Positions 13,332 to 48,200 of a stretch of DNA of 64,000 nt are shown piece after piece; position 1 is the stretch's first letter; each line of letters starts with the position of its first letter. The notes beneath the pieces were generated by a model. It searched no databases, was not told where the DNA came from, and saw only the letters and a list, made by a program, of their open reading frames with translations. A program made the position numbers and the translations under genes. Source of the stretch: Candidatus Levybacteria bacterium RIFCSPLOWO2_12_FULL_41_12 (GTDB lineage: Bacteria; Patescibacteriota; Microgenomatia; Levybacterales; UBA12049); the NCBI GenBank assembly GCA_001784155.1, contig MFPL01000007.1, positions 10,101-74,100 on the forward strand, given 5' to 3'.

Positions 13332-13381
13332 TTCGCTACATTATAGTTTATATGGTAAAATCAAAGCAAATCATCATCCCG

Positions 13382-24295: not shown

Positions 24296-25146
24296 TAAAA
24301 AATAATCTACCTTTAAGCCTGGAGTTAAAGGCAGCGGAAACAAGAGAAGAAATTTTAGAAATGATAGTAAGTGCCCGTGGAACCCACATTGCGAGTGCGT
24401 TTTCAATAGTAGATTTGGTGGTTTATTTATACAATCATGTTTTAAGAATAAATCCCAAAAAACCGAATGATCCTAAAAGAGATAAGTTTGTCTTAAGTAA
24501 AGGACATGGATGCGCAGCTTTGTATGTTGTTTTGGCAAATCTTGGCTTTTTTCCAAAGAGTGAGCTTGGGAAATACTGCACGAGAGAGGGTATTTTGGGT
24601 GGACACCCCGATAGCACAAGAATACCGGGGGTAGAAACCTCGACAGGTTCTTTGGGTCATGGTTTTCCTGTGGCCGTAGGATTTGCGTTGGCCAGTAAGA
24701 TTAACAAAAGTAATTCTAAGGTTTATTGTATAGTCGGTGATGGTGAATGCAATGAAGGGTCGGTTTGGGAAGCGGCACAGGTAGCTCCGCACCATAAGTT
24801 AGATAATCTAACTGTAATAGTTGATGACAACAAACTTATGATCTCAGGTTTCGCTAAGGATATTCTAAACCCTTTATCTTTAGCGGATAAATTCAGGATA
24901 TTTGGTTGGAATGTTATTGAAATCAATGGTCACAATTTTAAGGAAATAATAACTGCATTTAATGCCAAAACGAAAAATTCTAAGCCTACTGCCATAATCG
25001 CAAATACAATTAAAGGCAAAGGAGTGTCTTTTATGGAAAATGAAAAAGAATGGTACAGTAGACTTCCCAACGAAGAAGAGCTTAAGCTCGCGTTGGATGA
25101 GTTAGATACAAAAATCAAAAAGCTTAAGGGGAGGCTTAAGATATGA
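24292..25146 (+). CDS. Transketolase N-terminal-section subunit (TPP-binding)
   Basis: SKGHGCAALYVVLANLGFF, GHPD....GVETSTGSLGHGFPVAVGFA, VGDGECNEGSVWEA. Confidence 0.8.
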   Translation: MIKNNLPLSLELKAAETREEILEMIVSARGTHIASAFSIVDLVVYLYNHVLRINPKKPNDPKRDKFVLSKGHGCAALYVVLANLGFFPKSELGKYCTREGILGGHPDSTRIPGVETSTGSLGHGFPVAVGFALASKINKSNSKVYCIVGDGECNEGSVWEAAQVAPHHKLDNLTVIVDDNKLMISGFAKDILNPLSLADKFRIFGWNVIEINGHNFKEIITAFNAKTKNSKPTAIIANTIKGKGVSFMENEKEWYSRLPNEEELKLALDELDTKIKKLKGRLKI

Positions 25147-30034: not shown

Positions 30035-31606
30035 ATGGAAAAACAGCAAAATAAAAAGGTGGTAGTTATTTGTCTTGATGGTGCCAACTGGGATATTCTT
30101 AAACCTTGGGCAGAAAAAGGTTGGCTTCCTAATATTAATAGATTTTTAGAAAAAGGGACTTCAACTAACTTAATTACCACGCTTCCTCCCGTAACAGGGC
30201 CAGCATGGGTATCATTTGCGACAGGAAAAAATCCGGGCGCACATGGGTGTTACAACTTTGCAATTCCTACAGATAGCCTGCTAAACGTCGATCCTATAAG
30301 TACAGAAAAAATAAAAGGGAAAACGTTTTACGAAATACTGGAAAACGATGGAAAGAAGAGCATTCTTATAAACATGCCTTGTTCCTTCCCTCCAAGAATA
30401 AAAAAAGGAATTGTCCTTCCAAGTTTTCTTGCAGCTGACTCTTCGGATGTGTATCCCAGAAATATCGTTAACAAAGTACCAGAGATTAAAAATTATAGAG
30501 TGGTTACGGATTTTCTCAAACAAAGAATTGGGAAAGGGGAAGCTATGGCCAAAGATGCAAGGGAGCTTGAAGGAGACAAATTCCTAATTGCAAAAAAATT
30601 ATTTCTGAATTTTGAATGGGATTTTTTCTTTGTAATGTTTATGGCAACGGATTGGATCCAGCATAAGCGTTATAAATATTTGCTTTCCGGGAAGGATAAG
30701 AAGTCATCGGTATTTGTGCAGGCATATATTGATTTAGATAACTATATTGGATGGTTTTTAGACAATATTTCAAAAGACACAACTCTTATTCTAATTTCCG
30801 ACCATGGCTTTAAGTCTGTTTCCACATACTTTCATATAAATGTATGGTTGAGAGAAAATAGTTACCTTAAACAAAAACTTCCAAGGTTGCGTTTAAACTC
30901 ATCAATACCACTCACCCCGGACAGGATCATAAAGGGCGGGGGAAGAGTAAAGGGACTCTTTCCCAATATGGTACGCACTGGTTCTACGATTCTTATTAAT
31001 CATAATTCTTTATATCTCTTATCAGGGCATTTTGCACGGTTGATAACAAAATATATCCCGGTTGCCAAAAAAATTATACCATCTGAGTTTCTTAACGTAG
31101 GATATGAGATTGATCCACAAAATTCGGTAGCATACAGCATTTCGGGGGGAAACGTAACCGGAATTTATATAAATGACAAGGTAAGGTTTAAGGACGGACT
31201 GGTTTCAGAAGAAGAATACAATAATATTAGAAATGAAATAATTAAAAGTATGAAAAGCGCTCGTGATACAAATGGCAAAAAGATATTTAAGAATGTTTAT
31301 AAAAAAGAGAATATCTACTCCGGAGACCATCTTTTAATGGCGCCAGATATTCTTTATGAGGAAAGCGAGCACATTATCATAACAACCGTTTTATCAAGTA
31401 TAAAGTCAATCGAGAAAACTCCTGATGGCGGCTGGCACGATAGGAAAGGCATATTTGCTGCATATGGAGATAAAATTATTAGAGGTAAAACAATAAAGGA
31501 TATTTCAGTTTTAGATTTCGCGCCGACTATTCTGCATCTGTTTGGGAAAAACATTCCTCTCGATATGGAGGGAAGAATTCTCTTTGAGATATTTAAAAAT
31601 AAATGA
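30035..31606 (+). CDS. Alkaline-phosphatase-superfamily enzyme (type I phosphodiesterase/nucleotide pyrophosphatase-like), soluble
   Basis: VVVICLDGANWD.....G.LPN. TTLPPVTGPAWVSFATGKNPGAHG metal-site block. ISDHGF. No TM. Confidence 0.6.
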   Translation: MEKQQNKKVVVICLDGANWDILKPWAEKGWLPNINRFLEKGTSTNLITTLPPVTGPAWVSFATGKNPGAHGCYNFAIPTDSLLNVDPISTEKIKGKTFYEILENDGKKSILINMPCSFPPRIKKGIVLPSFLAADSSDVYPRNIVNKVPEIKNYRVVTDFLKQRIGKGEAMAKDARELEGDKFLIAKKLFLNFEWDFFFVMFMATDWIQHKRYKYLLSGKDKKSSVFVQAYIDLDNYIGWFLDNISKDTTLILISDHGFKSVSTYFHINVWLRENSYLKQKLPRLRLNSSIPLTPDRIIKGGGRVKGLFPNMVRTGSTILINHNSLYLLSGHFARLITKYIPVAKKIIPSEFLNVGYEIDPQNSVAYSISGGNVTGIYINDKVRFKDGLVSEEEYNNIRNEIIKSMKSARDTNGKKIFKNVYKKENIYSGDHLLMAPDILYEESEHIIITTVLSSIKSIEKTPDGGWHDRKGIFAAYGDKIIRGKTIKDISVLDFAPTILHLFGKNIPLDMEGRILFEIFKNK

Positions 31607-32481
31607 GAGACAACAGAAGGATTTTTTTATTTGACGTAAATCATACTCTTATAAATACAGCCTTATATCATACGCAAGCACTTGAAGTTCTCGAGAAAGG
31701 TTTAAAAAAACATACCGATGCTAAATCTGCTAGTTATATCACTGAAAGGTATGATGAGATATTCCTTCTAATGGTTGCTGGTTTCCTGCTCAAAACCGAT
31801 AAAGAATGGAAGGAAATTAGAGGTGGTAGGACTTCGTATCTTGAGCTTATGAAATTAATTACCAAGCATCAGGAAGAAGTGAAAAATAAGTGGGGATTTA
31901 TTAAAAAGTGGAGTAGGGAGGTTTTTCTTAAGATCGCGGCAGAAGAAATTGATGTAGACATTACCCCCCAAGCATTGTTTGAGCTAGGAACAGTTTACTG
32001 GGATACCATAACCCGATTAACAGAGCCCCTTGAGGAAGGCAAAAAACTTCTATCGCATCTGTATTCAAAAGGTTACCCTGTATATTTGTTAACAAGTAGC
32101 GATGGCAGGCTTACGTCAAACAACGGTTTTTTCGAGTATGATCCTAAGCTGTCCGGAAGTTATAAGAAAAATAGAATGAAGGCGCTTTCACTTAAGGGGC
32201 TAAAATTCCGGGATGTTATAGTAGGTGATCCCGAAGATAAGCCATTGCCTGGATACTATGAGCGTGCTATAAAAACCATAGAGAAGGATATGAAAAAAAA
32301 GATACATATTTCCTCATTTGTTATGATCGGTAACTCTTTTGAGGATGATCTCGAAACCCTTATGGAGATGAATGTTGGCACAGGTGTACTTTTCAAGAAG
32401 GGGTCAAGTCCTATGAAAAAAAAGAACGATATTTACAGAGTTGGGAACTTAATGGAAGTTGTAGACTTATTGAGTCTATAG
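31603..32481 (+). CDS. HAD-superfamily-like hydrolase (variant motif I DVN)
   Basis: FLFDVNHTL (motif I with Asn at the second Asp position). LLTSSDG (motif II). IGNSFEDD (motif IV-like). Confidence 0.4.
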   Translation: MRDNRRIFLFDVNHTLINTALYHTQALEVLEKGLKKHTDAKSASYITERYDEIFLLMVAGFLLKTDKEWKEIRGGRTSYLELMKLITKHQEEVKNKWGFIKKWSREVFLKIAAEEIDVDITPQALFELGTVYWDTITRLTEPLEEGKKLLSHLYSKGYPVYLLTSSDGRLTSNNGFFEYDPKLSGSYKKNRMKALSLKGLKFRDVIVGDPEDKPLPGYYERAIKTIEKDMKKKIHISSFVMIGNSFEDDLETLMEMNVGTGVLFKKGSSPMKKKNDIYRVGNLMEVVDLLSL

Positions 32482-32530
32482 CTTTGATGTTGAAATTTTT
32501 TCATAAAGTATATATAGTTTCGAGTATAAA

Positions 32531-33220
32531 TTGAAAATAATAAAACACACCGATCTTGCAGAAAAAATAAATGAAAGCGAGAATGTGCTTAGAAAAGCAT
32601 ATGAGAAGTACGGAGATAGGATAGCAATTTTCTGGACGGGTGGAAAAGACTCTACTGTATTACTACATATGATAAGGAATATCTTTGGAAATAAAAATAA
32701 GCTAAAAGTTCTCTTTTTGGACACACAACTTGATTTTGATGAAGTTTACGAGTTTATAGAAAGGATCAAAAAAGAGTGGAGAATAAATTTAATTACGGAA
32801 AAAACTACAGATAAGATGATGAAAAAATATAACTCTTTGAAAACGAAAAAGGAGAGGGTAGAGCTGGCAAGTATTTTTAAAATAATTCTTCTTAAGGAAG
32901 CCGTAAAAAAGCAGAAACTACCAGCTCTAGCAATAGGGATAAGGTGGGATGAGCATCCCGAACGCGCTTCGGAGAAATACTTCTCTCCCAGAGAAGGCCA
33001 TGTGAGGGTTCATCCGCTCCTTCATTTTACAGAAGAAGATATCTGGAAATACATAAAAAAGTTCCGTCTTCCTTATATTTCTTTATATGATAAAGGATAC
33101 AGGTCTTTGGGAGAGAGAGAATTCACGAAGCCCTCAACTAGAAGTGGAGGAGAAAGGTCTGGAAGGCAAAAAGAAAGAGAAGTAATAATGAAGAGATTAA
33201 GAGACCTTGGTTATTTCTAA
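32531..33220 (+). CDS. PAPS-reductase-family PP-loop protein (adenine-nucleotide alpha-hydrolase fold)
   Basis: IAIFWTGGKDSTVLLHMI PP-loop. C-terminal ERSGRQKEREVIMKRLRDLGYF. Apparent TTG start. Confidence 0.55.
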   Translation: MKIIKHTDLAEKINESENVLRKAYEKYGDRIAIFWTGGKDSTVLLHMIRNIFGNKNKLKVLFLDTQLDFDEVYEFIERIKKEWRINLITEKTTDKMMKKYNSLKTKKERVELASIFKIILLKEAVKKQKLPALAIGIRWDEHPERASEKYFSPREGHVRVHPLLHFTEEDIWKYIKKFRLPYISLYDKGYRSLGEREFTKPSTRSGGERSGRQKEREVIMKRLRDLGYF

Positions 33221-34900
33221 GTGAGATATTTTATTTTCAGAAATTGGATTTATCTTCTGGTAATTTTTTTTACTACTTTATCCGTTTTTATCGATCTTCC
33301 CAAAACATTTTATCAGCAGGATGAATGGCAAACATTAGGCCATAATCTTGCTGGACCGTCAGGCTCAGCTCTTGGAGACATTAACCTGGTTCGGATCTTT
33401 TTTGGCGAAGGACGTCCCTTAAGTACGGTAATGTATTCCCTATTCTTAGGATATTTCAAATTTACCGTTTTTCCCTCGGCAATATTTGCGATTACCTTTC
33501 AAGCCCTAAACTCAATGCTTGTCTTTGTCCTGGTGAGCAAAATAACTAAGAATAAGCTCATTGCACTTCTTTCCGCATCATTTCTTATAGTAAATAGCGT
33601 CTCACATCAAGCAGTGACATGGGTTTCGGCGAATAGCACTTTACCCGCCGCGACGCTAATTCTAATTTCTCTTATAACTTATTTTAATTACTTAGATAAA
33701 AAAGAGAGGAAGTATTTCTATGTTAGCATTATCTCAGCCATTCTTTCGCTTTACTTCAAGGGTATTGGGCTATTCCTTTTTGTTCTCCTCCCACTATTAC
33801 CCTTCATTTATCAAAATAAATCCTTCACTAAGAAAAACTTATTGTTTATTTTGAAGGACAATCTGATGTTCCTCGTGTTTGGTTTTTTAATGTTTGCTGT
33901 TAGATTTATTTCAACCTTTTTTCGCACAGAAGAGGTTGCAGGTTATGCAAGCGGGGGGGGAAGTGGTTCTTTCATTTACGCAGTTTTCTTGCGAACAATT
34001 CTATATCCGCTAACTTCACTTTTTCAAATTTTTGTTCCGCCTCTGGATTTATATTCGATAACCCCTGCCATAACAAAGATGCAATATAAGTTCTTAGTAG
34101 GTTCTCCATTGGTTGATTTGGTAGCGCAAAGTATAGTAGCAGACATGATAGCTATCATGGGTTCAATATTGATTCTATTCTTTTCAATCTTAATGGTGCA
34201 TAGGTCTAAGGATAAAATTATTAGTAGGAATGTCCGGTTTGCAATTGTTTTTTTCTTCTTAAGCTTTCTGCCTTATGTTGCGCTCGATCGAGATAGTTCA
34301 TATCTTTCATCGCGGTATTTCTATGTAGGACTGATTCCTGCAGGTATTCTTTTTGGATATGCAGTTTATTTCTTTACCACATTTAATAAATATATTAAGT
34401 GGGTCACACTATTTTTGGTAACTGTTTATTTATTTCATCATGCGGCTATCGTAAGATCGGACATTAATCATCAAGTCAAGCTGGGAAATGAGCGCGTATC
34501 CGTCTTGAATGGGATCAAAACTCTTTATCCTAATCCTTCAGAGAATACAATCTTTTACGTGACAAGCGATAAAGCTTACTATGGTGAAGTGACAAATCCT
34601 TTTCAAAACGGGTTGGGATATGTTCTAGAAGCTTGGTATTACGATACAGGGAAAATTCCGAAAGAGTTCTTATCTGAAAATTTCCTGTGGGATTTGGGTG
34701 ATGAGGGGTATAAGAGAAGTAGGAATAAGGGATTTGGGTATTATCAGGATATTGATAAAATGATAAAGGATATGGAGAAGAATAATATAAAATCCGAAGA
34801 TGTTTGGGCGTACTTTATTAAAAGTAAAGAGTCAGAAATAGTTGATATAACTTTGGAAACAAGAGAAAGAATCTCTACGGTAAGCGCTATTCCTAAATGA
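33221..34900 (+). CDS. GT-C (PMT/GT39-like) polytopic membrane glycosyltransferase
   Basis: At least 10 hydrophobic helices. First-loop acidic motif QQDEWQTLGH (DE-type). GTG start. Contains a G8 homopolymer at 33953..33960. Confidence 0.55.
   Translation: MRYFIFRNWIYLLVIFFTTLSVFIDLPKTFYQQDEWQTLGHNLAGPSGSALGDINLVRIFFGEGRPLSTVMYSLFLGYFKFTVFPSAIFAITFQALNSMLVFVLVSKITKNKLIALLSASFLIVNSVSHQAVTWVSANSTLPAATLILISLITYFNYLDKKERKYFYVSIISAILSLYFKGIGLFLFVLLPLLPFIYQNKSFTKKNLLFILKDNLMFLVFGFLMFAVRFISTFFRTEEVAGYASGGGSGSFIYAVFLRTILYPLTSLFQIFVPPLDLYSITPAITKMQYKFLVGSPLVDLVAQSIVADMIAIMGSILILFFSILMVHRSKDKIISRNVRFAIVFFFLSFLPYVALDRDSSYLSSRYFYVGLIPAGILFGYAVYFFTTFNKYIKWVTLFLVTVYLFHHAAIVRSDINHQVKLGNERVSVLNGIKTLYPNPSENTIFYVTSDKAYYGEVTNPFQNGLGYVLEAWYYDTGKIPKEFLSENFLWDLGDEGYKRSRNKGFGYYQDIDKMIKDMEKNNIKSEDVWAYFIKSKESEIVDITLETRERISTVSAIPK
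33953..33960 (+). repeat. G8 homopolymeric tract inside the GT-C coding sequence (candidate slipped-strand phase-variation site)
   Basis: gcaagcGGGGGGGGaagtgg encodes ASGGGSGS. It is the longest G/C run in this ~33 % GC window. Confidence 0.5.
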
Positions 34901-37900
34901 ATTTTTTAAGAAAACACTGGGAAATATTGATCATCCTTTTTCTGGGTTTGACACCTCTTCTTTGGTATAAGGATCCAAATTCTCTTGCCTTAGGTCACGA
35001 TATGGGATTTCCAATCGATCCAATATCTTTCTTCAAAGACAGGACATTTTTGTGGACTGACCGCGTAGGACTTGGATGGGATCAGACTTTAGGTTCTGCA
35101 GCGATTCTAATACATGGATTTGAGGCAGCCGTAGCGAGCCTTGGTGTACCCATTTTCCTCGTTCAAAAGGTAGTGTTTATTTTCTGGTTCGTTCTGCCCG
35201 GTCTTGCGATGTATTATTTTGTTTCCACCATTCATAGGGAAAAAGATCAATGGTTTATAAGGTTAGCCGGAAGCCTATTTTACATGTTTAATCATTTTTT
35301 ACTTCAAGCCTGGTTCATAGCAGAAAGAACAAAAATATCTCTATTCATTGCTCTTCCAATTCTTCTAGCTTTAACCATTAGCATGATAGAGGGGAGAATC
35401 TCAAAAATTAAAGGTCTGGCGTTAATGTCTTTAGTTTTTTTCTTCTTCAACGGAGGGGGAGGATTACCCCTATATGGGGGACTACTTTTAACTCTCTTTA
35501 CTGCCTTTGCATTTTTTGGCCTTATACATTTAAGAAGAAACCCCAAAACAGGAGTAAAAAGACTAACAGGAATTGCTTTGGGAATTTTAGCAAGCTTTAT
35601 TCTTGCAAATTTCTATTGGGTTTTGCCATTGTTAGTAAGCGTTTTGTCATCTTATGGTCAAAGCTTGTCATCAATAGGTGGGATATCAGGAGTTATCGCT
35701 TGGTCATTTGAAATTAGCAAGTTCGCAAGCATATTGAATGTAATGAGGCTTCAGGGAATCCCTGATTGGTATGATAATCCCAGCCATCCATTTTCTGGCC
35801 TTTTCTTAAATAACCCATTTCTGATTTTGGTAAGCTTTCTTATACCGGTTGTTGTTTTCTCTTCGTTATTCCTGATTAAGAAAATCCCAGAGTACCGAAG
35901 ACATATAATCTTTTTTAACATACTGGCAGTTTTAGGAATAATCTTTACTGCAGGATCACATCCTCCTTTTGGAGCAATCTATAATTTATTCTTAACCTTT
36001 ATTCCCGGATTCGCTATATTTAGAACCCCTTTTTATAAATTTGCTCCGGCTGTTTGGTTTGCATACGCGTATCTTTTTGCTTTTTCTTTTTATTATTTAA
36101 CTCAAAACTTCAAAAGAATAAGGTCAGCTTTACGATTCTTGGTATTGCCGTTAATCCTTATTTACAGTTTTCCCTTTTTTACCGGAAGTTTTTTTAACTG
36201 GAAAGAACCGTTTTCCACAATGACAAATTTACCATCGTATGTGTTAGATTTTTCCGAATATGCTAATTCAAATTTCTCTTTTAACGATAGAGTTTTAACC
36301 TTTCCTAACCAGAATCTGGGATGGAATAGCGCAATTTATAAATGGGGATATTGGAGTACTGCACCAATCGAGAGCCTCTTGACGAACAAATCGATAGTCT
36401 CAAACGATAGGGTTATGACAGATCCAGAAAAAAAACTCACAGAATTGATATATGACTCGATTTTGAACCGAACAGACGAGTGGAAAAAATCAGTAAACAT
36501 TTTGGGCATAAACTATTTTCTCTTACATAACGATTTTTATTATGATGCACCAAAATTCGAAACAGAAGACCCTAGGGTGTATAGAGAAAGATTTTTAGAA
36601 CTGGGCTTTGAAAAAAAAGAAGTTTTTGGAGAGTGGGAGCTTTATAAAATTCCGGGCCTTAGTCTCAAAAGTAAATTATATATTGATAACGATGCAATTG
36701 GCATATATAACAATGAAAATGTTTTAGAAAATCAATATTTTGGCATAGAAAATGTTCTTGATTTGCCCTTAGACGATGACCCGTTTGTTATAAATTCTCC
36801 AGATACATCAGATAATTTAAAAACTACAATTTTTTTAGAAAATTGTTTGTTCTGCGATAAGGAACAAAAAGAAACACCCATTTTTCTACCAAGAACAAGA
36901 ATTCTTCCAGGCTCTATTCTTTACCCTTTAGTTAAACGTAAAGAAAATAGTCAAAGAAATAAATTAACGAAAAATATTAACTCTAAATTAGATTTTCACC
37001 TTGGGACAACTCTCAAGAGACTGGCTGAAATTAAACATTTGATTGATCTGGGTGCGGATGAGAATAAAACAAACGGTGCTGTTAATGAGCTAAAAAAGGA
37101 ATTGATACTCCTGCAAGATTCAGTTAACAAAATGGATAAGAGCAGAGGAGACATGAGGCTTCTAGTACTAAGAATAGATAATTTCTTAAGAGAGGAGAAT
37201 AGAATCCTAGCTGATATTTCCAACGACGCAAATGCCTCTACGGGAGATAAATTAATAGACGTTAGATCGTTTATATCCCTAGCAACCCAAGAAAACAGGA
37301 AATATGAATCTTTATATCCGGAAAATACTGAAAAACGTTATCACTTCACAATAGATAAAAAAGGAGGTTATGAAATTCTTGTCAGAAAAGATGAATTTAA
37401 GCCGGATTTAGTAGTTGAAAAGGCAGTAGTTGATAATAAAGGACTTCCGTTAAAAACTTTTAATAAAAACAGCCACTATTATTCATTCGGAGTGAACGTT
37501 TTTAGTAAGGGCTTTCATGAAATAAGTCTATTCTTAAAAAATCCGGATAACTTACTTAGTAAAGGAAATGATGATGATTTAAACTTCGATGTTAATCCTC
37601 TACAGCCGGATTGCAGAGTGTTTAGAATAGAACCCCTTTCCAGTAGAATTTACATTCTTAACTTTGATTACTTAACGGAAAGATCCGTAGGAGCTGATAA
37701 TGGACCATTTGTTAAAATAGAACAAGTACTTCAAGACGATGTAAGGGATGAGGATTTTCAACTTAAGGCAAATAGCATCTTTCAAACATTTGATTATAAA
37801 ATAGCAACTGAGAAAAACGTTCAGTTGGTTAAGGTTTCTATATGTGCTTCTTCAGGTTATGAAAATTCTTCAAATATTCATATTGAAAATTTATCCCTCA

Positions 37901-38271
37901 GACCATTCCAGACGCCTGCGCTAGCTCTTATATCTTCAGACAACAAACCGACAATAAATGATAACAAAATCTCGGTAACGCAAATAAACCCAACAAAATA
38001 TGAAGTAAGAGTAAATGCAAATAGTCCTTATATTCTTGTACTTAATAACAAATTTAACTCTAATTGGAAAACTTCGGATAAAGATGTGAATACCAAGCAT
38101 TTTATGGTAAATGGTTTTGCTAATGCTTGGAATATTTCCAAAACGGGCGAATACACGTTAATTGTCGAATATAGCTCGCAGAAGTATTTTTATTTCGGTT
38201 GGTTCATAACGATAGCATTTATGATAACAATGTTTACTTATCTAATCTATGCAATTTATAAACATAAATAG
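34897..38271 (+). CDS. Very large (1124 aa) polytopic membrane protein, GT-C/AftD-like, with a ~650 aa extracytoplasmic domain and a C-terminal TM anchor
   Basis: About 450 aa of TM helices at the N-terminus (GHDMGFP loop). Long hydrophilic region. Final helix FGWFITIAFMITMFTYLIYAIY. Paralogous N-terminal region to 38586..40505. Confidence 0.5.
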   Translation: MNFLRKHWEILIILFLGLTPLLWYKDPNSLALGHDMGFPIDPISFFKDRTFLWTDRVGLGWDQTLGSAAILIHGFEAAVASLGVPIFLVQKVVFIFWFVLPGLAMYYFVSTIHREKDQWFIRLAGSLFYMFNHFLLQAWFIAERTKISLFIALPILLALTISMIEGRISKIKGLALMSLVFFFFNGGGGLPLYGGLLLTLFTAFAFFGLIHLRRNPKTGVKRLTGIALGILASFILANFYWVLPLLVSVLSSYGQSLSSIGGISGVIAWSFEISKFASILNVMRLQGIPDWYDNPSHPFSGLFLNNPFLILVSFLIPVVVFSSLFLIKKIPEYRRHIIFFNILAVLGIIFTAGSHPPFGAIYNLFLTFIPGFAIFRTPFYKFAPAVWFAYAYLFAFSFYYLTQNFKRIRSALRFLVLPLILIYSFPFFTGSFFNWKEPFSTMTNLPSYVLDFSEYANSNFSFNDRVLTFPNQNLGWNSAIYKWGYWSTAPIESLLTNKSIVSNDRVMTDPEKKLTELIYDSILNRTDEWKKSVNILGINYFLLHNDFYYDAPKFETEDPRVYRERFLELGFEKKEVFGEWELYKIPGLSLKSKLYIDNDAIGIYNNENVLENQYFGIENVLDLPLDDDPFVINSPDTSDNLKTTIFLENCLFCDKEQKETPIFLPRTRILPGSILYPLVKRKENSQRNKLTKNINSKLDFHLGTTLKRLAEIKHLIDLGADENKTNGAVNELKKELILLQDSVNKMDKSRGDMRLLVLRIDNFLREENRILADISNDANASTGDKLIDVRSFISLATQENRKYESLYPENTEKRYHFTIDKKGGYEILVRKDEFKPDLVVEKAVVDNKGLPLKTFNKNSHYYSFGVNVFSKGFHEISLFLKNPDNLLSKGNDDDLNFDVNPLQPDCRVFRIEPLSSRIYILNFDYLTERSVGADNGPFVKIEQVLQDDVRDEDFQLKANSIFQTFDYKIATEKNVQLVKVSICASSGYENSSNIHIENLSLRPFQTPALALISSDNKPTINDNKISVTQINPTKYEVRVNANSPYILVLNNKFNSNWKTSDKDVNTKHFMVNGFANAWNISKTGEYTLIVEYSSQKYFYFGWFITIAFMITMFTYLIYAIYKHK

Positions 38272-38599
38272 GATAAAAGAATACTTTTATAAAAGACAAA
38301 ATAGAATTTTGGTAATTCTATCATTAAGCGTGCTATTTTTAGTAGTTAAGGAAATACCATTCTTAAATATTTTTTTTCCCGATAACGCTGCTTTTGGAGT
38401 TGCGCTCATTTCCATTTTAATTTTATTTAAACTTTATAAAAATACAATCTTCATCATTTTTTTAGCATTTTTCAGCTTTATTCTATATATAACAGAAGTA
38501 GTTAACCATGCAGATCAGCTAGCAGTTCTAATATTAGTATGTTTAACGGTGTATATGCTAGAAGAGGCTACAGTTTTTTTAAGAAATGAAATTTCCTAG
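38249..38599 (+). CDS. Small hydrophobic membrane protein (3-4 TM)
   Basis: 116 aa, mostly hydrophobic helices. Overlaps its neighbours by about 20 nt on each side. Could be a real small subunit or a spurious ORF. Confidence 0.35.
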   Translation: MQFININRIKEYFYKRQNRILVILSLSVLFLVVKEIPFLNIFFPDNAAFGVALISILILFKLYKNTIFIIFLAFFSFILYITEVVNHADQLAVLILVCLTVYMLEEATVFLRNEIS

Positions 38600-40505
38600 A
38601 AAATTAGAATATATACTTTTATTCTTTTTTGCTTTTCTCATTTACAGATTTTTCCTATCAACAGATCCTTTAGTTGCAAACGACTGGCCGCTTCTTTTTA
38701 GAGAGTCTAGAACCTTTTCGCCGTTCTGGGCGATGGCGTGGGACTATATGGGGAACGGCGGTATCGGCGGGCCGGCATTTAAAACAATCTGGATCGATCT
38801 TTACGCCAATTTTGTCTATTCGATAACAAACTTTACAAACATGCCCTGGTGGTTATCTCAAAGAGTTTTCTGGATAGTGCCTTTTATCTCTCTATCTCTT
38901 GCCTCTTCTTATGTGTTTGCCTCCTATCTCTTAAGAGACCGATTGCTTAAAATTGCTTCAGTTTTAATTTATAGCTTCAACACCTATATCCTCATGATTT
39001 TGGGTGGGGGACAATTTGGCGTAGCCTTTTCTTACGCATTGGCTCCTTTGGCTTTGTTTGCTTTTTTTAAACTTTTAGATAGACCAACGGTACTGAATGT
39101 TCTCGTTTCAGGACTGGCTTCAGGAATACTTATAGCTTTGGATCCAAGAGTTGCGTCTCTTATCTTTCTTGTCGGATTTTTCTGGTTCGTCTTTTTTGGC
39201 AGAAAATTTACCAAGGTAAAAATAAAAGCCGTTGTTTCGAGCCTTATAATAGTTGGCGCTTTAAACCTTTACTGGATTTTGCCAATCTTAATGTCGAAGG
39301 GGTCTTTATCGGGATTCTCAAATTACGCGTCATTAGCAGGGGTGAAGTTTCTTAGCTTTGCTACGCTTTCGGATAGCATTTCACTTCTTCACCCTAACTG
39401 GCCTGAAAACATTTTTGGTAAAATATATTTTTTTAAGCCTGAATTTCTGATTCTACCGATTCTTGCCTTTGCCACCCTTCTTTTAAAACCTAAGAAGGAA
39501 ATACTTTTTTTTCTCGGACTATCCATCTTCTCCGTTTTTTTAGCAAAAGGAGCAAGTGATCCCTTTGGCCAAGCTTACCTATTCCTTTTCGATAACGTTC
39601 CCGGCTTTAGTCTATTTAGAGACTCGACTAAATTCTATGTTTTAACTGCGCTTTCCTTCAGCATTTTAATTCCTTATTTCATTGAGAACTTACCTTCCAG
39701 GTTTAAGCATTTGACTGCAGGAGTCTTTATAGTTCTTTTTTTGTTCATTCTAAGGCCTGCATGGAGTGGAGAGCTTACCGGTATTTTTAGGCCTCAACCA
39801 ATACCCACGGATTATCTTCTTTTAAAAACCGAGCTAAGTCAGGATAAAGATTTTTACAGAATTATGTGGCTTCCCCAAAGACAGAAGTATGGATACTTCG
39901 ATCCCAATCATCCTACAATATCCGCGCAGGATTTTTTCAAAACAACCAATCATTCTCAAATTCTTAAGAATTTGAGAATGAAGGATGTACAAAAATTACT
40001 TGAAGAATCTTCGGTCAAATACATTATTGTTCCTACGGATTCAAACGGAGAGATTTTTCTTAAGGATAGAAAATACGATCCGCTGCAATATAAGAAAACC
40101 GTTGATTTTTTAGATAAAATGGTCTGGTTTAAGAGGGCTCAGGGATTTGGTAATTTAGCAGTTTATCAAACGAGAGGCTACAGAGGTCACTTCTTTATTC
40201 CATCCGGCGGAGAAGTACAGGGGAAATTCATAAATCCTACGGAATATAGCATCAGAACCGATACCTTACAGCCGGGAGATTTAGTTGTTTTCTCGGAAGC
40301 CTATGACCAGGGGTGGAAAATGGGCGGGGTTACTGCCACGCCTTACAAATCAAGACTTAACAGTTTTTTTGTGCAAGATATTGAAGATATTAAAGTATTC
40401 TATAGCCCGCAGTTATGGGTGGGGAGGGGGCTTCTTTTAAGCTTTGCTACGGCAGTTGGTGTTGTTAGCCTCATGGTATTTGGTAGATTACGCCGAAAAT
40501 GGTAA
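38586..40505 (+). CDS. Polytopic membrane protein, GT-C-like. Paralog of the N-terminal half of 34897..38271
   Basis: Aligned motifs with the neighbouring giant protein (ILANFYWVLPLL vs ALNLYWILPIL; GIPDWYDNPSHPF vs LLHPNWPENIF). C-terminal TM anchor. Confidence 0.5.
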   Translation: MKFPRKLEYILLFFFAFLIYRFFLSTDPLVANDWPLLFRESRTFSPFWAMAWDYMGNGGIGGPAFKTIWIDLYANFVYSITNFTNMPWWLSQRVFWIVPFISLSLASSYVFASYLLRDRLLKIASVLIYSFNTYILMILGGGQFGVAFSYALAPLALFAFFKLLDRPTVLNVLVSGLASGILIALDPRVASLIFLVGFFWFVFFGRKFTKVKIKAVVSSLIIVGALNLYWILPILMSKGSLSGFSNYASLAGVKFLSFATLSDSISLLHPNWPENIFGKIYFFKPEFLILPILAFATLLLKPKKEILFFLGLSIFSVFLAKGASDPFGQAYLFLFDNVPGFSLFRDSTKFYVLTALSFSILIPYFIENLPSRFKHLTAGVFIVLFLFILRPAWSGELTGIFRPQPIPTDYLLLKTELSQDKDFYRIMWLPQRQKYGYFDPNHPTISAQDFFKTTNHSQILKNLRMKDVQKLLEESSVKYIIVPTDSNGEIFLKDRKYDPLQYKKTVDFLDKMVWFKRAQGFGNLAVYQTRGYRGHFFIPSGGEVQGKFINPTEYSIRTDTLQPGDLVVFSEAYDQGWKMGGVTATPYKSRLNSFFVQDIEDIKVFYSPQLWVGRGLLLSFATAVGVVSLMVFGRLRRKW

Positions 40506-40514: not shown

Positions 40515-41432
40515 ATGCTAAGCGTAGTTGTTCCCGTATATAACGAGGAAGAAGGAATAAAGGCATTTTTTAAGGAATTAAAAAAGTTCTTACCTCAGGA
40601 TTATGAAGTGATTTTTGTGGACGATGGATCCACAGACAAAACCCTCTCTCTTGTTAAAGAAATCGGCAGTAAAAATAAAAATATTCGATACTTTTCCCTC
40701 AGAAGGCACCAGGGTAAGGCCGAGGCATTAACAATTGGTTTTCAAAAATCCAAAGGCGACTTTGTATTAACGATTGATGCGGATCTTCAGGATAGGCCCG
40801 ATCAGATAGGGAAGCTTCAGAAGAAGATTAATGAGGAGTGGGATATGGTATCGGGCTGGAGGAATGAAAGAAAAGATTCCCCGTACAAAAAGCTCACCTC
40901 AAAACTCTTTAATCTTATGGCGAGTGCATTCTGGGGACTTAAGCTAAATGACCTTAACTGTGGTTTGAAGTTATATCGAAAGGGTGCTGCGAAGTCTTTA
41001 AATCTTTACGGGGGACTTCACAGATTTATTCCAATACTTCTTCACCAGGAGGGATTTAGAGTCACTGAAGTTCCGGTAGTTCATGATGTGCGTAAATTTG
41101 GGAAATCGAAGTACACATTCATGAAGGTTTTTACGGACATTCCCGATATGTTTACGATGTTATTCCTCTCAAAATATAGCAATAGACCCCTTCACTTCTT
41201 TTGGCTTATAGGTCTTATATTTGGACTCTTAGGGTTTTTAATTCTATTCTATCTCTCGATCATTTGGCTTCAAGGCGAATCCATTGGTCGAAGACCGCTT
41301 CTTATCTTCGGCGTTCTTTTTACTTTGGCAGGTATTCAGGTTTTTTTCACGGGGTTTCTGGCTGACCTTTTTATATCCGGCACAAAAAGCAATAAAAGCG
41401 AAGAAGTCATGGTTAAAGAGCAAAGCGACTAA
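40515..41432 (+). CDS. GT2 polyprenyl-phosphate glycosyltransferase (DPM1/GtrB/ArnC-like) with C-terminal TM helices
   Basis: LSVVVPVYNEEEGI....VDDGSTDKT...IDADLQDRPDQ. Two C-terminal helices (FWLIGLIFGLLGFLILFYLSII... FGVLFTLAGIQVFFTGFLADLF). Confidence 0.8.
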   Translation: MLSVVVPVYNEEEGIKAFFKELKKFLPQDYEVIFVDDGSTDKTLSLVKEIGSKNKNIRYFSLRRHQGKAEALTIGFQKSKGDFVLTIDADLQDRPDQIGKLQKKINEEWDMVSGWRNERKDSPYKKLTSKLFNLMASAFWGLKLNDLNCGLKLYRKGAAKSLNLYGGLHRFIPILLHQEGFRVTEVPVVHDVRKFGKSKYTFMKVFTDIPDMFTMLFLSKYSNRPLHFFWLIGLIFGLLGFLILFYLSIIWLQGESIGRRPLLIFGVLFTLAGIQVFFTGFLADLFISGTKSNKSEEVMVKEQSD

Positions 41433-41438: not shown

Positions 41439-41660
41439 ATGAAGCCTCAAGACATATTATTTTTACTGGTTTTGCTACCCTTATTATATAAAAGAGATCC
41501 AATGTGGTTTGCTCTGGCGGGAATTTTTTGTCTGGTACTCTCAGCCCCCTTATTCTCTCAGTGGATTTTCTTCACCGCCCAGCGCCTCGTCATCTACGCT
41601 TTTTTGTTCTTCTTGCTGTCCCTTCTATTACATATCAAAAACCTGCATAATAAACAGTAG
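41439..41660 (+). CDS. Small 2-TM membrane protein (possibly GtrA-like companion of the upstream GtrB-like GT2)
   Basis: 73 aa, two hydrophobic helices. Sits right after the polyprenyl-P GT, as gtrA does in gtrAB(C) cassettes, but is shorter than GtrA. Confidence 0.3.
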   Translation: MKPQDILFLLVLLPLLYKRDPMWFALAGIFCLVLSAPLFSQWIFFTAQRLVIYAFLFFLLSLLLHIKNLHNKQ

Positions 41661-41662
41661 GT

Positions 41663-42187
41663 ATGAAAATCGGGATTGATATAAGCCAGCTGGCTTTTGA
41701 AAGAACTGGTGTTGCAAACTATCTGAAGAAGTTAGTAGAAAGTCTGGCTTTGGTTGATAAGAAAAATGACTACATTCTCTTTTACTCTTCCCTGAGAAGG
41801 CCTGTGCCTGTGCTAGATATAAAAAACCCCAACTTTAAAATAAAAGCTTTTAAATTCCCTCCGACTTTTCTTGAGAGACTCTGGAATAAGTTCCACCTTT
41901 TTCCGATCGAAAACTTCATAGGAGACGTGGATGTTTTTATCACTTCAGATTGGGTAGAACCGCCTGCCAAGAATGCTAAAAAAGTAACAATACTCTATGA
42001 CTTAATTGCGTATAAATATCCCGCAGAGACTCATCCAAGAATTGTCGAGGTTCAAAAAAGAAAAATAAGCTGGGCAAAAAACGAAACCGATAAATTTTTT
42101 GCAATATCGCAGTCAGCAAAAAGTGATGCCATCGATATTTTGGGAATAGATAAATCAAAAATCGAAGTAATATACCCTGGAATTTAA
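41663..42187 (+). pseudogene. GT4 glycosyltransferase N-terminal-domain fragment (174 aa, ends at the inter-domain YPGI)
   Basis: MKIGIDISQLAFERTGVANYLKKL resembles the N-termini of the full GT4s at 53231 and 42621. The ORF stops exactly at the YPG hinge where the C-terminal Rossmann domain should begin. The next gene is a four-helix-bundle protein. Confidence 0.5.
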
Positions 42188-42220
42188 TTAGTATTCAGTA
42201 CCAGGTATTAAGTAGTAAGT

Positions 42221-42595
42221 ATGGAGGACAGTAAAATTAGAACATTTAAGGATTTGATTACCTGGCAGGAGGCACACAAACTCGCTTTACTTGTTTATTC
42301 AATGACAAATAACTTTCCAAGAAGCGAAGCCTACTCTCTTGTTGACCAGATGAGAAGGTGCGTAATTTCTATTTCAAGTAATATTGCAGAAGGATTTTCT
42401 AGAAATTCCCAAAAAGAGAAAAGACAGTTTTATTATATGGCACTTGGCTCATTGACTGAGCTTCAAAACCAATTACTTCTCTCAAAAGACTTAAAATATC
42501 TTAACAAAGAAAAGTTCTCAGAGATTGATGAACAAACAACTACAGTTCATAAATTAATTAATGGACTTATAAAAAGTTCGAAAAATTATACTTAA
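42221..42595 (+). CDS. Four-helix-bundle protein ('23S rRNA intervening-sequence protein' family)
   Basis: TWQEAHKLALLVY..T..FP..E.YSLVDQMRR...SI.SNIAEGFSR.S.KE...FY..ALGS..EL..QL. Confidence 0.8.
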   Translation: MEDSKIRTFKDLITWQEAHKLALLVYSMTNNFPRSEAYSLVDQMRRCVISISSNIAEGFSRNSQKEKRQFYYMALGSLTELQNQLLLSKDLKYLNKEKFSEIDEQTTTVHKLINGLIKSSKNYT

Positions 42596-42620
42596 TACAT
42601 AATTCTTTATACATAATACT

Positions 42621-43745
42621 ATGGTAATTGGAATAAATGGATACGAAGCAGTAGTTCCGCGTTTCGGCTACGATAAAGAGGGATTACCCAGTAGGGTGGG
42701 AAGCGGCGAGTTTTCATTCAGGCTGATTTCGGAATTTTCAAAAGATACAAATAACAAATATATAATTTATCTTCCCAAGGCTCCAACCTCAGATATGCCT
42801 CAAGAGACCGAAAATTTCAGATATTCTGTTTTTACGACAAAGAAATTGTGGACAATGACAGGTCTTTCCAAAAGGCTTTATGCTGATAAAGAAAAGATTG
42901 ATGTTTTTCTCTCTCCTACACATTATCTTCCACTATTCGTTCCCTGCCCTTCCGTCGTTTCAATTCTTGACGTATCTTATCTTCATTTTCCAAAACTTTT
43001 TAAAAAGAAAGATCTCTACCAGCTGAAAATTTGGGGAGGGTACTCCATAAGAAAATCAAGCGCTGTTATTACCATAAGTGAGTCATCGAGGAGTGATATA
43101 ATCAGAGCATATGGTCTAAGTCCGAACAAGGTAACAGTGGCTTACCCCGGTTTAGTTGAGAGAGAAAAAGAAGATAAACCTATGGATGAATTAGATAAAA
43201 AATACGGAGTTAAGGGAAAATATATTCTTTTTGTTGGGACTCTTCAGCCCAGGAAGAATATAAAAAGGCTAATCGAGGCATTCTCAAAGCTTAAAGATAA
43301 AGACGTTGACTTAGTTGTCGTAGGTAAAAAGGGATGGATGTATGATGAAATAATAAATTCCCCCTCTGAGTTTGGAGTTGGGAATAGAGTGAAATTCTTA
43401 GACTCGGTAGAAGATGAAGACTTGTCCACATTCTACAAAAACGCAATCTTCTTCATTTTGCCCAGTCTTTATGAAGGATTTGGCTTGCCTGTTCTTGAAG
43501 CTATGGAATATGGGTGTCCTGTTATCACTAGTAATGTTTCAAGCCTGCCCGAGGCAGGGGGAGACGCAGTTTTATATGTGAATCCCGAAGACGTCAAGGA
43601 TATTACGGAAAAAATGCAAAAGCTCCTGCAAGATGATAGTCTTAGGAAGGAGCTTGTGGCCAAAGGGCGTGAACAGGTGAAAAAGTTTTCCTGGAAGAAA
43701 ACGGCAGAGCAGACTATTAAGGTGCTTGAAGGATTAAATAAATGA
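42621..43745 (+). CDS. GT4 (GT-B) glycosyltransferase
   Basis: C-terminal EGFGLPVLEAMEYGCPVITSNVSSLPE. KVTVAYPG hinge. 374 aa. Confidence 0.8.
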   Translation: MVIGINGYEAVVPRFGYDKEGLPSRVGSGEFSFRLISEFSKDTNNKYIIYLPKAPTSDMPQETENFRYSVFTTKKLWTMTGLSKRLYADKEKIDVFLSPTHYLPLFVPCPSVVSILDVSYLHFPKLFKKKDLYQLKIWGGYSIRKSSAVITISESSRSDIIRAYGLSPNKVTVAYPGLVEREKEDKPMDELDKKYGVKGKYILFVGTLQPRKNIKRLIEAFSKLKDKDVDLVVVGKKGWMYDEIINSPSEFGVGNRVKFLDSVEDEDLSTFYKNAIFFILPSLYEGFGLPVLEAMEYGCPVITSNVSSLPEAGGDAVLYVNPEDVKDITEKMQKLLQDDSLRKELVAKGREQVKKFSWKKTAEQTIKVLEGLNK

Positions 43746-45213: not shown

Positions 45214-48200
45214 ATGAAGAAAATAGTTTCCTGGATTTCAGACAATGTACTTTTTGTAGAAACAATATTTCTTCTGGCATTTATTCCCCTTTACCCAAAG
45301 CTTCCCTTACTGGATATTAAGAATACCTGGGTGTATATACGAGCGGAAGACTTTGTGGTTCTTTTTGTCTTACTTTCAATGCTAATCCTTCTTTTCAAAA
45401 GAAGGATTAGCCTCCGTACCCCATTAACGATCCCCATACTTGTTTTTTGGATTATTGGTGCAATTGCCACAATTCATGGTGTACTTCTTATTTTCCCCAA
45501 AATTGCAAATGTATTTCCCAATGTAGCTTTCCTAAGTTTAATGCGCCATATAGAGTACATGAGCCTTTTCTTTATTGCTTATCTTGGAATGAAGGATCCG
45601 AGAAGGCTGACTATTGTTATAGGGACTTTGGTTACGACACTTTCTGGAGTCGTTCTTTATGGGTTTGGCCAAAAGTATTTAGGTTTTCCTGCCTACCTGA
45701 CAATGAACGAAGAGTTTGCAAAAGGAGCCCCTATCACTCTCTCCGGACTCTCAAGGGTTCCGTCCACTTTTGCAGGACATTATGATCTGGCAGCATACCT
45801 AGTTCTTATAATCCCAATTCTTATTAGTTTAATTTTCGGATTTAAAAGTTGGTTAATAAGAGCAGCGTTAGCAACAGTTTCTCTATTAGGAATAGTTCTT
45901 CTTTTTATGACAGTTTCAAGAGTTTCTTTTTTTGTACTTTTTGTTTCGCTTCTTGTGGTTATATTTTTTCAAAAGAAAAAAGTAATACTTTTCTCAATCC
46001 CTGCAGCTATCTTATTAGGTTTTCTTTTTATAACATTTCAACCAACCCTACTTGATCGATTCAAAGGGACAGTGTCTGAAGTTGATGTTTTGGTTGACGC
46101 AAATACCGGAGAATCTGTGGGTCATGTAAGGTTTGTTTCTCAAGATTATTTTAAAGACAAAATAGTTTTGAGAAGAATAGTCAGGGATAAAGCAGATTTA
46201 GCGTATGCAATAATGGGTAAGGAGACAAGCGTTAAGGATCCTACAGAATCTGCGATTTATCCTTCCAGTCTTATTCCGGACAATTCGCCGCTTGTAACTG
46301 CAGTGAATGTTTCTAACGGTGAAAATCTTCCCCAGGGTACGGGATATATCAATTTGCCTCTTTCCCCTGTTGTGCAAAGACTCCCCAGCTTTTTCTATGA
46401 ACTTCCTCCTAATGTTAATGTGGAGTCCACTATTTCTGCTCAAATTCTCGTGATACAGGGAGACTTTATAGTTAAAAAAGCGTCTGCATACGATCTTTCC
46501 TTTACAACTAGATTTCAGGGAGAATGGCCTAGGGCGATAGAGGCATTCGAGCGAAACATTTTAGTGGGAAGCGGTTATGGATCTGTAAGTCTGGCTGTAG
46601 ATAATAATTATTTGCGTATATTAGGAGAAATTGGAATTCTGGGATTTACTTCATTTTTGGTTATATTTCTCTCTTTGGGAATTTATATAAAAAGATTTTA
46701 CCGTGATCTGGAGTCAAGCGTCTCAAAGAGTTTTGTATTGGGCTTCTCTGCAGGTTTAATCGGGCTTTCTCTCAACGCCCTGCTTATCGATGTTTTCGAG
46801 GCATCGAAGATCGCGTTTCTCCTATGGACTCTTGTAGGAATTACTTTGGCTATTTTGGTTTCGGGAGCAAAAAAAGAGCTTAATCTTTTTAGCGAGTTAA
46901 AAAAGGCAGCGACTTCAACATATGCCGTTTTCGTTTATCTATTCCTGCTTTCTATCGTGCTTTTCTCACCAATTATGGAAAATTATTTCGTAGGGGACGA
47001 CTTTACTTGGCTTAGATGGGCGGCAGACTGTAGGGATAAGTGTTCTTCATTTTCCTCAGTAATAAAATACTTTACAGAGTCTGATGGTTTTTTCTATAGG
47101 CCTGGAACTAAAATCTTCTTTGACTTTATGTATTCCACCTTCTGGCTAAATCAGAACGTGTATCACTTGGTATCAATACTGCTTCATTTTGCTGTAGCCT
47201 CGCTTTTCTATTTATTGGCTTTGAGAGTTTTAAGAAGAAAGATTTTGGCAGCATCTTCGGCTTTTCTTTTTCTCGTAATGGCGGGTCCTGCAGAGGCGGT
47301 TTTTTGGATTTCATCAGTCGGACATCTTTTTAATGCATTACTGGGACTATTAGGACTTATGTTATTTATATTGTGGGAAGAGAAGAGGAAGGCTTATTAC
47401 TATATCGGCGCGTTTGTTTCTTTTGCCCTAGCTCTTTTATTTCATGAACTTGGTATTGTATTTCCGCTTTTAGTTCTGGCGTATAAAATGAAGGATGGCT
47501 TTTTATCGGGAATTAGGCAAATGCTTGCAAGGCTCGACTTTTTGACTCTTTTCATACCTGGTATCGCTTATCTTTTCCTTCGCTATGCTTCCCACAGCCA
47601 TTGGTTTAGCGGGGACTATAGTTACGATATCCTAAAGCTTCCGTTTAATTTTTTCGGAAATATTCTGGGATACTTATCTCTTATAATCTTGGGACCAATT
47701 TCTCTCCCTTTTTACGAAACTTTAAGAAGCCTAGCAAGGGGACACATGATCCTGGGTATTGTTGCTATTTCTTTTTCTGCAATACTTCTTTACCTTGTCT
47801 ACCGTTTTGTTTATAAGAAGTTAAGTTCAGACGATAAAAGGGTTGTTTTATTTGGTATCGCGTTTTTCACCATAGCTTTACTACCGTTCCTAGGGCTTGG
47901 AAATATTACCTCAAGATACAGCTACCTTGCTTCCGTAGGTCCGATTTTAATACTGGTTATGCTTGCCCGGAAGTCATATGAGTATCTAAAGGCAAGCGGC
48001 AGGGAGATAGCTATTGGAGCATCCACTCTCATATTTTTGGTTTTTGCATTGTTTCATATAATTCAGGTCCAGCAAGCTTACTTTGATTGGCACGAAGCGG
48101 GAAAATACAGCAAGAACTTTTTCGTGTCCATTGATGCCTTGTATGATGATGAATGGTCAAAAGACGTAAGGTTCCACTTCGTAAATGTTCCCATAAGGCA

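Follow-up and report, generated by a model that had tools for sequence, protein, structure and literature searches.

The closest described relative of the proteins studied here is arabinofuranosyltransferase D (AftD) of Mycobacteriales (DUF3367, Pfam PF11847; PDB 6w98, 6wbx and 6wby). It is essential in mycobacteria, where it is a possible drug target, and it is usually viewed as an envelope factor confined to Actinobacteria. Its essential residues are K39, D41 (first external loop), E251, K361 and D474. The chain has carbohydrate-binding modules (CBMs), three of them, and a structural beta-sandwich, then transmembrane (TM) helix TM12 and finally TM13-16, a C-terminal membrane domain which binds acyl carrier protein (bioRxiv 10.1101/2019.12.22.885152). 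We describe a pair of relatives of this protein in the Candidate Phyla Radiation (CPR). They are found in a stretch of 64,000 nt from the uncultivated, ultra-small Candidatus Levybacteria bacterium RIFCSPLOWO2_12_FULL_41_12 (contig MFPL01000007.1, positions 10,101–74,100, forward strand), which we will call the window. The pair consists of a long protein of 1124 aa and a short one of 639 aa, with a small gene coding for a hydrophobic protein of 116 aa between them.

The second relative is MmpA (NCgl2761/Rv0226c), a shorter paralogue of AftD which is encoded near aftD and is homologous to its N-terminal half. It combines a polytopic core with a single external domain and ends in a TM helix. Trehalose-mycolate transport requires it: trehalose monomycolate builds up in its mutants, and a role as membrane anchor has been proposed. 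Its homologues have been reported absent outside Corynebacterineae (PMC8698533), so that it is viewed as an envelope factor specific to that group. MmpA is essential to the growth of M. tuberculosis and its function is poorly understood; Foldseek searches have led to the suspicion that it is a glycosyltransferase (bioRxiv 10.64898/2026.07.31.741767). A third point of comparison is given by the three-component systems GtrA/GtrB/Gtr, ArnC/ArnE-F/ArnT, CsbB/YfhO and PgfS/PgfM1/PgfM2. The window resembles them in having a GT2 enzyme with C-terminal TM helices beside polytopic GT-C enzymes and a small protein with about four predicted TM helices.

The three genes lie on the forward strand, each an intact open reading frame (ORF) with an ATG start: the long gene at 34897..38271, the small gene at 38249..38599 and the short gene at 38586..40505. 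Two overlaps connect them: the small ORF shares 23 nt with the end of the long gene and 14 nt with the start of the short one. A first-pass annotation, made by a model from the letters alone, had placed the two large ORFs at exactly these positions and had pointed out the overlap of the 116-aa ORF with both, as we also find. The stop codon of an upstream gene for a 559-aa protein overlaps the start of the long gene, and a GT2 gene begins 10 nt past the short one. With such overlaps and spacing the block resembles a single translationally coupled operon. We consider that the region is a module of genes transcribed together and devoted to glycosylation at the outer face of the cytoplasmic membrane, which would take its sugar from a polyprenyl-phosphate carrier; we give this reading a probability of about 0.7.

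The long and short proteins are true paralogues, as judged from a sequence similarity far beyond chance. By BLASTP they have 31% identity over 159 aa (residues 229–380 of the long protein and 215–351 of the short one, E 4e-11), and a second match is found at their C-termini (1030–1074 and 549–594, E 0.005). When profiles built from 40 homologues of each protein are compared with hhalign, the probability is 100 and E is 4e-40 over 487 columns: residues 5–546 of the long protein align with 5–485 of the short one, so that the entire membrane core and the first soluble domain are included. The paralogy and the common motifs of the membrane domain, which had been noticed by eye in the first-pass annotation, are therefore confirmed by both methods.

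Many positions are aligned and invariant, or nearly so, in both families. In the order long/short they are D35/D33 in the first external loop, W53/W52, N132/N132, P244/P233, W291/W272, G353/G322, P357/P326, G359/G328, the PGF motif at 370–372/339–341, R376/R345, K381/K349, P470/P430 and D546/D485. The aspartate of the first external loop is present in all 40 homologues of each family; N132, R376 and K381 of the long protein are, like D35, invariant across the 40 long-type homologues. Other positions are fixed in a different way in each family, for example E143 in the long type versus Q143 in the short one, or H297 versus N275. This pattern fits two active enzymes which differ in specificity.

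The family to which both proteins belong is not apparent from direct searches. A Pfam scan of the long protein finds only DUF5667, an NCBIfam scan gives no more than a weak match of the short protein to MmpA, and searches of the PDB with the single sequences of the window proteins give only noise. Profiles and structure models are required. The PF11847 model (GT-C_AftD) is matched by 24 of the 40 long-type homologues (best E 2.7e-12) and by 12 of the 40 short-type ones (best E 1.3e-6). When the profile of the long family is used to search the PDB, mycobacterial AftD comes first (E 1.4e-3), and the match is made of three collinear stretches, one in the first external loop, one in the soluble domain and one in the terminal beta-sandwich with its TM helix. 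A separate profile of the long C-terminus matches AftD 1197–1278 with E 0.005. The AlphaFold2 models of the long protein (pLDDT 85.6, pTM 0.79) and of the short one (pLDDT 86.0, pTM 0.86), both of them confident, lead to the same protein in Foldseek searches against the PDB. For the long model AftD is at the top with 6wby and 6w98 (E 7e-16 and 3e-15), and for the short one with 6w98 (E 1.5e-8, TM-score 0.55). The next matches are also GT-C enzymes: STT3, PglB, AftA and ALG12. On the basis of profiles and predicted structures we assign both large proteins to the membrane glycosyltransferases with a GT-C fold, in the AftD/DUF3367 lineage.

The first-pass annotation had suggested a transferase like GT-C, AftD or YfhO, to be checked by profile and Foldseek searches with AlphaFold models. 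AftD is indeed the best solved match of both proteins. The YfhO part of the suggestion does not stand: PF09586 finds neither window protein and only one of the 40 short-type homologues. The outcome which would have spoken for a well-characterised family of non-glycan transporters did not appear. Foldseek matches to MFS, LeuT and GPCR structures have probabilities of at most 0.15 (MFS and LeuT included) and TM-scores of at most 0.13, and we reject a transporter identity. The long model also gives matches to Cry toxins and Vip3 (E 5e-4 to 1e-2, TM-score about 0.1), which we judge to reflect only a common arrangement of a helical bundle plus a jelly-roll, not homology.

The model of the long protein can be divided into several parts. 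Residues 1–430 (34897..36186, forward strand as for all parts) form the polytopic GT-C core, with about 11 TM helices in the AlphaFold2 secondary structure, which aligns with the short paralogue. Next to it there is an alpha/beta soluble domain, the GT-C soluble domain, in residues 431–604 (36187..36708). This domain aligns with AftD 439–569 by profile and with residues 396–485 of the short paralogue by hhalign, and it contains D546, which is invariant in both families. A linker of low model confidence follows (605–675), with a conserved CxxC (C650 and C653). Residues 676–803 (36922..37305) form a bundle with five long helices in the model. Here the Pfam match to DUF5667 is found (PF18915, E 4e-6, 27.5 bits, residues 669–773), a domain also matched in 20 of the 40 homologues. 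After the bundle comes an all-beta sandwich, 812–1003 (37330..37905), which resembles a CBM: by profile it matches the CBM of hyaluronate lyase 4d0q with E 0.012, and C906 and C983 are conserved. Foldseek finds partial matches of the long model to CBM4 and CBM16 modules with probability 1.00, which we tentatively place on this same beta-sandwich. Neither the helical bundle nor this sandwich is found in the short paralogue. The chain ends with a terminal beta-sandwich (1009–1092) and a single TM anchor (1094–1123); this last part, residues 1009–1123 (37921..38265), is common to the short paralogue and to AftD.

The short protein is simpler. Its model has a membrane core in residues 1–395, an alpha/beta domain at about 400–540, a single beta-sandwich at 543–606 and a C-terminal TM anchor at 608–635. 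An external domain and an anchor are therefore not confined to the long protein, as the first-pass annotation had it: the short one has both (about 396–607, and the TM helix 608–635). The architecture of membrane core, large external domain and anchor described there is real, but it is a trait of the two paralogues. The C-terminal anchor of the long protein was well predicted; the size of its additional external part, given as about 650 aa, was not. The whole external region of the long protein has about 660 aa (431–1093), of which about 450 aa are extra with respect to the short protein: the linker, the helical bundle and one beta-sandwich. The lectin-like folds which it was proposed to look for in the long protein are there, in the form of two beta-sandwiches with matches of CBM4, CBM16 and CBM70 type.

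Like AftD, the window proteins have an N-terminal GT-C core with about 11 helices, an acidic residue in their first external loop, the alpha/beta GT-C domain, external beta-sandwich or CBM-like modules, and a terminal beta-sandwich with a TM helix after it (TM12 in AftD). D35/D33 are most likely the equivalent of AftD D41, although the alignment requires a shift of two residues just upstream of the stretch aligned by the hidden Markov model (HMM). The differences are also clear. The window proteins have 1124 and 639 aa versus about 1400 in AftD, and their external modules are a DUF5667 bundle with two beta-sandwiches in the long protein and one beta-sandwich in the short one, instead of three CBMs and a structural beta-sandwich. 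Every long-type protein that we have examined ends in one TM helix, whereas AftD has TM13-16 in the same chain. The window proteins thus have no obvious site for acyl carrier protein. Among the neighbouring genes that we have scanned there is no partner similar to the acyltransferase TmaT.

The GT2 gene (40515..41432, forward strand) codes for an enzyme of 305 aa similar to polyprenyl-phosphate glycosyltransferases, with two C-terminal TM helices. Pfam Glycos_transf_2 is matched with E 6.6e-35. In NCBIfam it matches ArnC (1.6e-49), PgfS (1.3e-40) and AglJ (5e-27), none of them up to the equivalog cut-off. It is a candidate for the synthesis of the lipid-linked sugar donor. Since an adjacent GT2 of the ArnC/GtrB/PgfS type indicates a hexose-type donor on polyprenyl phosphate, decaprenyl-phospho-arabinose is unlikely to be the donor of the window enzymes.

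Our data show fold, homology and paralogy, along with the conserved residues, the linkage of the genes and the small ORF as a real gene. From them we infer the catalytic activity, the donor, the acceptor and the role of the small protein as follows. The GT2 would place a sugar on polyprenyl phosphate at the cytoplasmic side; the lipid-linked sugar would be flipped, and each GT-C enzyme would pass it to a surface glycopolymer which the surrounding locus produces. Each of the two may catalyse a step or linkage of its own. In the long one the helical stalk and the extra CBM-like beta-sandwich might hold a long acceptor chain, with the 116-aa protein as its accessory membrane subunit.

The small ORF is a real gene under purifying selection. 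Its dN/dS is 0.15–0.18 in three pairwise comparisons with two relatives, versus about 0.11 for the long gene, and in this stretch the two remaining reading frames have stop codons throughout. The protein has 100% identity to a hypothetical one of Candidatus Levybacteria bacterium RIFOXYA1_FULL_41_10. It has about four predicted TM helices, and in the family the N-terminus is rich in K and R. After TM1 there is a PYxN motif, in which P37 never varies and Y38 and N40 hardly do (PFLN in the window protein), and a motif AE/AD..G..Y is conserved at the last helix. For the distribution of this family we have surveyed 85 related loci and the window, with 83 long-type genes and a total of 3,693 ORFs. 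For 68 of the 83 long-type genes, in Microgenomates genomes, an iterative HMM started from the window protein finds a hydrophobic ORF of 104–146 aa located at their stop codon, and it finds nothing else among the 3,693 ORFs. There is no consistent Pfam match in the family, and its profile has no PDB match at E ≤ 10. A narrow profile finds just 8 representatives in 1.84 billion proteins, none of them a fusion, and the family diverges fast. By these sequence comparisons it is a conserved family of membrane proteins which is neither annotated nor named. The 116-aa protein is most likely a dedicated partner of the long enzyme, an accessory membrane subunit rather than a flippase for lipid-linked sugars.

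Several results weigh against a glycosylation module of the AftD lineage. PF11847 matches neither window protein at E ≤ 1, no GT-C cut-off of Pfam or NCBIfam is reached by either of them, and their identity to AftD is only 10–14%. The acidic pair D474/E475 of AftD aligns with T488/A489 of the long protein, in a stretch which scores just 0.9 bits; the soluble domain does contain a different invariant aspartate, D546 (D485 in the short protein). The short protein matches the NCBIfam model of MmpA (NF053599) with E 1e-11, and the 44.2 bits of this match, versus an equivalog cut-off of 210, make it a lead and not a proof of membership in the family. MmpA itself has no known enzymatic activity, and its knock-out gives a defect in the transport of trehalose lipids (PMC8698533). 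Of 49 related loci only 19 (about 40%) have the GT2 gene after the short paralogue, and a link with the donor is thus not obligatory. A subgroup of long-type proteins with 893–1055 aa has no small gene. Finally, the models of GtrA (PF04138), EamA and SMR find none of 36 members of the small family at E ≤ 1, so that the small protein is not a detectable relative of GtrA or SMR.

This last result bears also on an alternative role of the 116-aa protein, which could be the flippase of the polyprenyl-phosphate sugar made by the GT2, in a three-component system with a GtrB-like synthase, a GtrA-like flippase and a GT-C enzyme. GtrA, ArnE/F and Rv3789 are small proteins of comparable size with roughly four TM helices, and a length of 116 aa with a similar number of predicted helices recalls them; furthermore a GT2 of GtrB/ArnC type and GT-C enzymes are present in the same operon. 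We consider a flippase unlikely. Besides the empty scans with GtrA, EamA and SMR, the small gene is tied far more tightly to the long GT-C gene, in the 68 loci already mentioned, than to the GT2, and its polar motifs (PYxN and AE/AD) fall at external ends of helices in a topology based on hydropathy. In general the window departs from the three-component systems in that its GT-C enzymes are of the AftD lineage, not Gtr, ArnT or YfhO, in that the small protein is no detectable member of GtrA/SMR, and in the limited linkage of the GT2.

The small protein could instead be the TM13-16 domain of AftD, split off as a separate gene, so that the long and small proteins together would make one full-length AftD. 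The long protein does end exactly where TM12 of AftD aligns (AftD 1197–1278), and the approximately 135 residues of AftD past that point hold TM13-16, a size not far from that of the small protein, with its 116 aa and about four helices; furthermore, the start of the small gene is always found at the long gene's stop codon. Yet a fused profile of the long C-terminus and the small protein aligns with AftD up to TM12 and no further, the profile of the small family is, as said, without match in the PDB, and a fused long and small protein is found neither in the 85 loci nor among the 8 matches in the representative library. We judge a split AftD improbable.

An equally doubtful alternative is less about the family than about the acceptor. 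The large proteins would be GT-C enzymes of YfhO, PgfM or PMT type, which glycosylate teichoic acids or surface proteins, and not enzymes for polysaccharide branching as in AftD. It finds some support in the similarity of the neighbouring GT2 to PgfS (1.3e-40), and in the fact that one short-type homologue matches YfhO and another PgfM2. These are single cases among 40, whereas AftD is best for both proteins by structure and by profile.

We come back to the glycosylation module of AftD type and its relationship with MmpA. The short paralogue is like MmpA in being a shorter paralogue of AftD, with a core, a single extracytoplasmic domain and a TM helix at the end. Weak matches to the NCBIfam model of MmpA are found in all 40 short-type homologues (best E 8e-12) and in none of the 40 long-type ones; in the short protein of the window the match is restricted to positions 263–402 of the 543 in the profile, its central third. 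The locus is unlike that of MmpA: there is no tmaT/mtrP context, and our scan of the neighbours finds GT2, GT4 and other genes of glycan biosynthesis. A pair of long and short proteins occurs in both phyla, and the parallel is notable. It would be tempting to consider the arrangement of long, small and short genes as an ancient AftD-MmpA module common to CPR and Actinobacteria, in which the long protein corresponds to AftD, the short one to MmpA and the small one either to a free-standing counterpart of TM13-16 or to a new obligate subunit. We regard this as a speculative idea, with the odds clearly against it. If it were true, MmpA would be a true glycosyltransferase, and the CPR proteins would offer a minimal system, free of mycolate, for the study of the AftD/MmpA pair.

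Least probable of all is that the short paralogue, and perhaps both, is a non-enzymatic scaffold or lipid-delivery factor like MmpA which helps in glycolipid export: the 40 short-type matches are indeed to a model named "MmpA family trehalose lipid delivery protein", and the accumulation of trehalose monomycolate in MmpA mutants and the anchor proposed by the authors (PMC8698533) are in its favour, but the match is partial and far below the cut-off, the short family retains the invariant aspartate of the first external loop and the Arg/Lys of the long family, the best structural matches of the short protein are all active GT-C enzymes, MmpA is now itself suspected to be a glycosyltransferase (bioRxiv 10.64898/2026.07.31.741767), and the surrounding genes that we have scanned belong to glycan biosynthesis, with no trehalose-lipid factor among them.

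The cassette of long, small and short genes, with or without the GT2, is found again in relatives with about 31–56% identity. In the 79 long genes with sufficient DNA downstream we have made a crude screen for hydrophobic ORFs of 70–170 aa located at their stop codon. The small ORF and the short paralogue are both present in 38 of them, the small ORF alone in 20 and the short paralogue alone in 11. A small-type ORF is thus found in 58 cases and a short paralogue within 3.5 kb in 49: the linkage of the small gene to the long one is tighter than that of the short paralogue.

Other CPR genomes have long-type genes in tandem (L030, L031, L036, L038, L048 and L058), for example 1167 and 1167 aa in L030 or 1168 and 1170 aa in L038. 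In these loci the small gene is often found after each copy, or after the second one. In the Daviesbacteria loci L005 and L013 a protein of 1029 aa follows the small ORF, and it matches the short-type profile with 311 bits. The two closest relatives of the window (L086 and L087) have 80–82% protein identity in the long gene and 76–77% in the small one, and just 54% in the short one. Nucleotide homology with them extends from about 33293 to about 38887, with a breakpoint near 38890, inside the short gene; beyond about 38887 the homology with L087 ends, while L086 has one weaker alignment on to about 39913. The drop in similarity inside the short gene suggests mosaic recombination or allele replacement, as in variable glycan loci.

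In the GTDB species genomes the relatives with an informative name are nearly all CPR of the Microgenomates group: Levy-, Davies-, Gottesman-, Roizman-, Woese- and Dojkabacteria. In metagenomes we have considered the best 120 of 401 long-type matches and the best 120 of 557 short-type matches. Few of these have a named source: Roizmanbacteria, Daviesbacteria, Levybacteria, a bacterium of the Microgenomates group, a Saccharimonadales record and records of the Patescibacteria group. Many records of metagenome-assembled genomes which represent GTDB species (L007, L008, L010, L011 and others) have the title "uncultured Gammaproteobacteria bacterium" (TPA_asm) and carry a cassette of CPR type. The contig of L008 (CAZCCG010000002.1) is also that of L004, whose long protein is named Candidatus Saccharimonadales by another source. 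Such titles are probably placeholder mislabels.

One of the homologues considered is already annotated as "alpha-(1->3)-arabinofuranosyltransferase family protein". The assignment to AftD-like GT-C enzymes is thus implied by some public annotations, and in this respect our advance is incremental. In the literature we have found no paper on AftD-like proteins in CPR, on DUF5667 or on the cassette. What is new, as far as sequences and models can tell, is the conserved cassette itself, the family of small proteins without annotation, an external architecture unlike that of AftD (with a DUF5667 bundle and fewer CBMs, and without TM13-16) and the similarity of the short type to MmpA outside Actinobacteria. 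Paired long and short relatives in CPR of the Microgenomates group, which have no mycolic-acid envelope, widen both families well past Actinobacteria. The short type lends support to the idea that MmpA-like proteins are GT-C enzymes, and the small family may be a subunit of AftD-like enzymes. The pair also marks a large, recombining glycan locus, which probably shapes the surface that episymbiotic CPR cells show to hosts and phages.

The window is in fact a very large locus for surface glycans. It contains several GT2 and GT4 genes, a GT10-like gene, a split transketolase, epimerase/dehydratases, methyltransferases, a PAPS-reductase-like protein, a protein of the alkaline-phosphatase family, two polytopic proteins with F5/8-type-C domains and a GT-C protein of the PMT_2 family. 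The upstream polytopic membrane protein of 559 aa (33221..34900, forward strand) has conserved counterparts upstream in L002 and L087. A weak similarity (E 6e-11) relates it to the membrane protein of 828 aa with an F5/8-type-C domain at 3990–6476, and it is probably another transferase which depends on lipid-linked sugars. The 828-aa protein and another of 887 aa at 13316–15979 are large and polytopic, each with an F5/8-type-C (discoidin) domain; they are paralogues of each other, with 24% identity and E 3e-14. In L001 a protein comparable to these and to the 559-aa one has a weak PMT_2 match, and its homology with the window protein is putative.

Right after the GT2 there is an ORF of 73 aa with two TM helices (41439..41660, forward strand) and a weak match to DUF7657. 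Its place is taken by an ORF of 75 aa in L002 and of 72 aa in L004. The region 41663–43745 has a stand-alone gene for a GT4 N-terminal domain (174 aa) together with a complete GT4 gene of 374 aa. Between them, at 42221–42595, there is a gene of 124 aa for a "23S rRNA-intervening sequence protein", similar to bAvd (PF05635, 2e-38). The two GT4 genes are directly adjacent in L001, L002 and L004, so that this bAvd-like gene, a four-helix bundle, looks like an insertion in the window. At 45214–48402 we find a protein of 1062 aa with many predicted TM segments. Its N-terminus is weakly similar to IctB/O-antigen ligases (TIGR00947, 1.2e-8) and its residues 664–906 resemble the 559-aa protein (E 0.001): it is possibly a polymerase or ligase fused to a GT-C-like half. 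The corresponding place has a protein of 1009 aa in L004 and of 1075 aa in L002, both without Pfam match. Finally, the regions 23267–26093 and 30035–33220 contain the GT10 (fucosyltransferase-like) gene, the split transketolase pair (24292–25146 and 25143–26093), a phosphodiesterase of the alkaline-phosphatase family, a HAD hydrolase and the PAPS-reductase/CysD-like protein. These genes hint at an unusual sugar, which might be branched, phosphorylated or sulfated.

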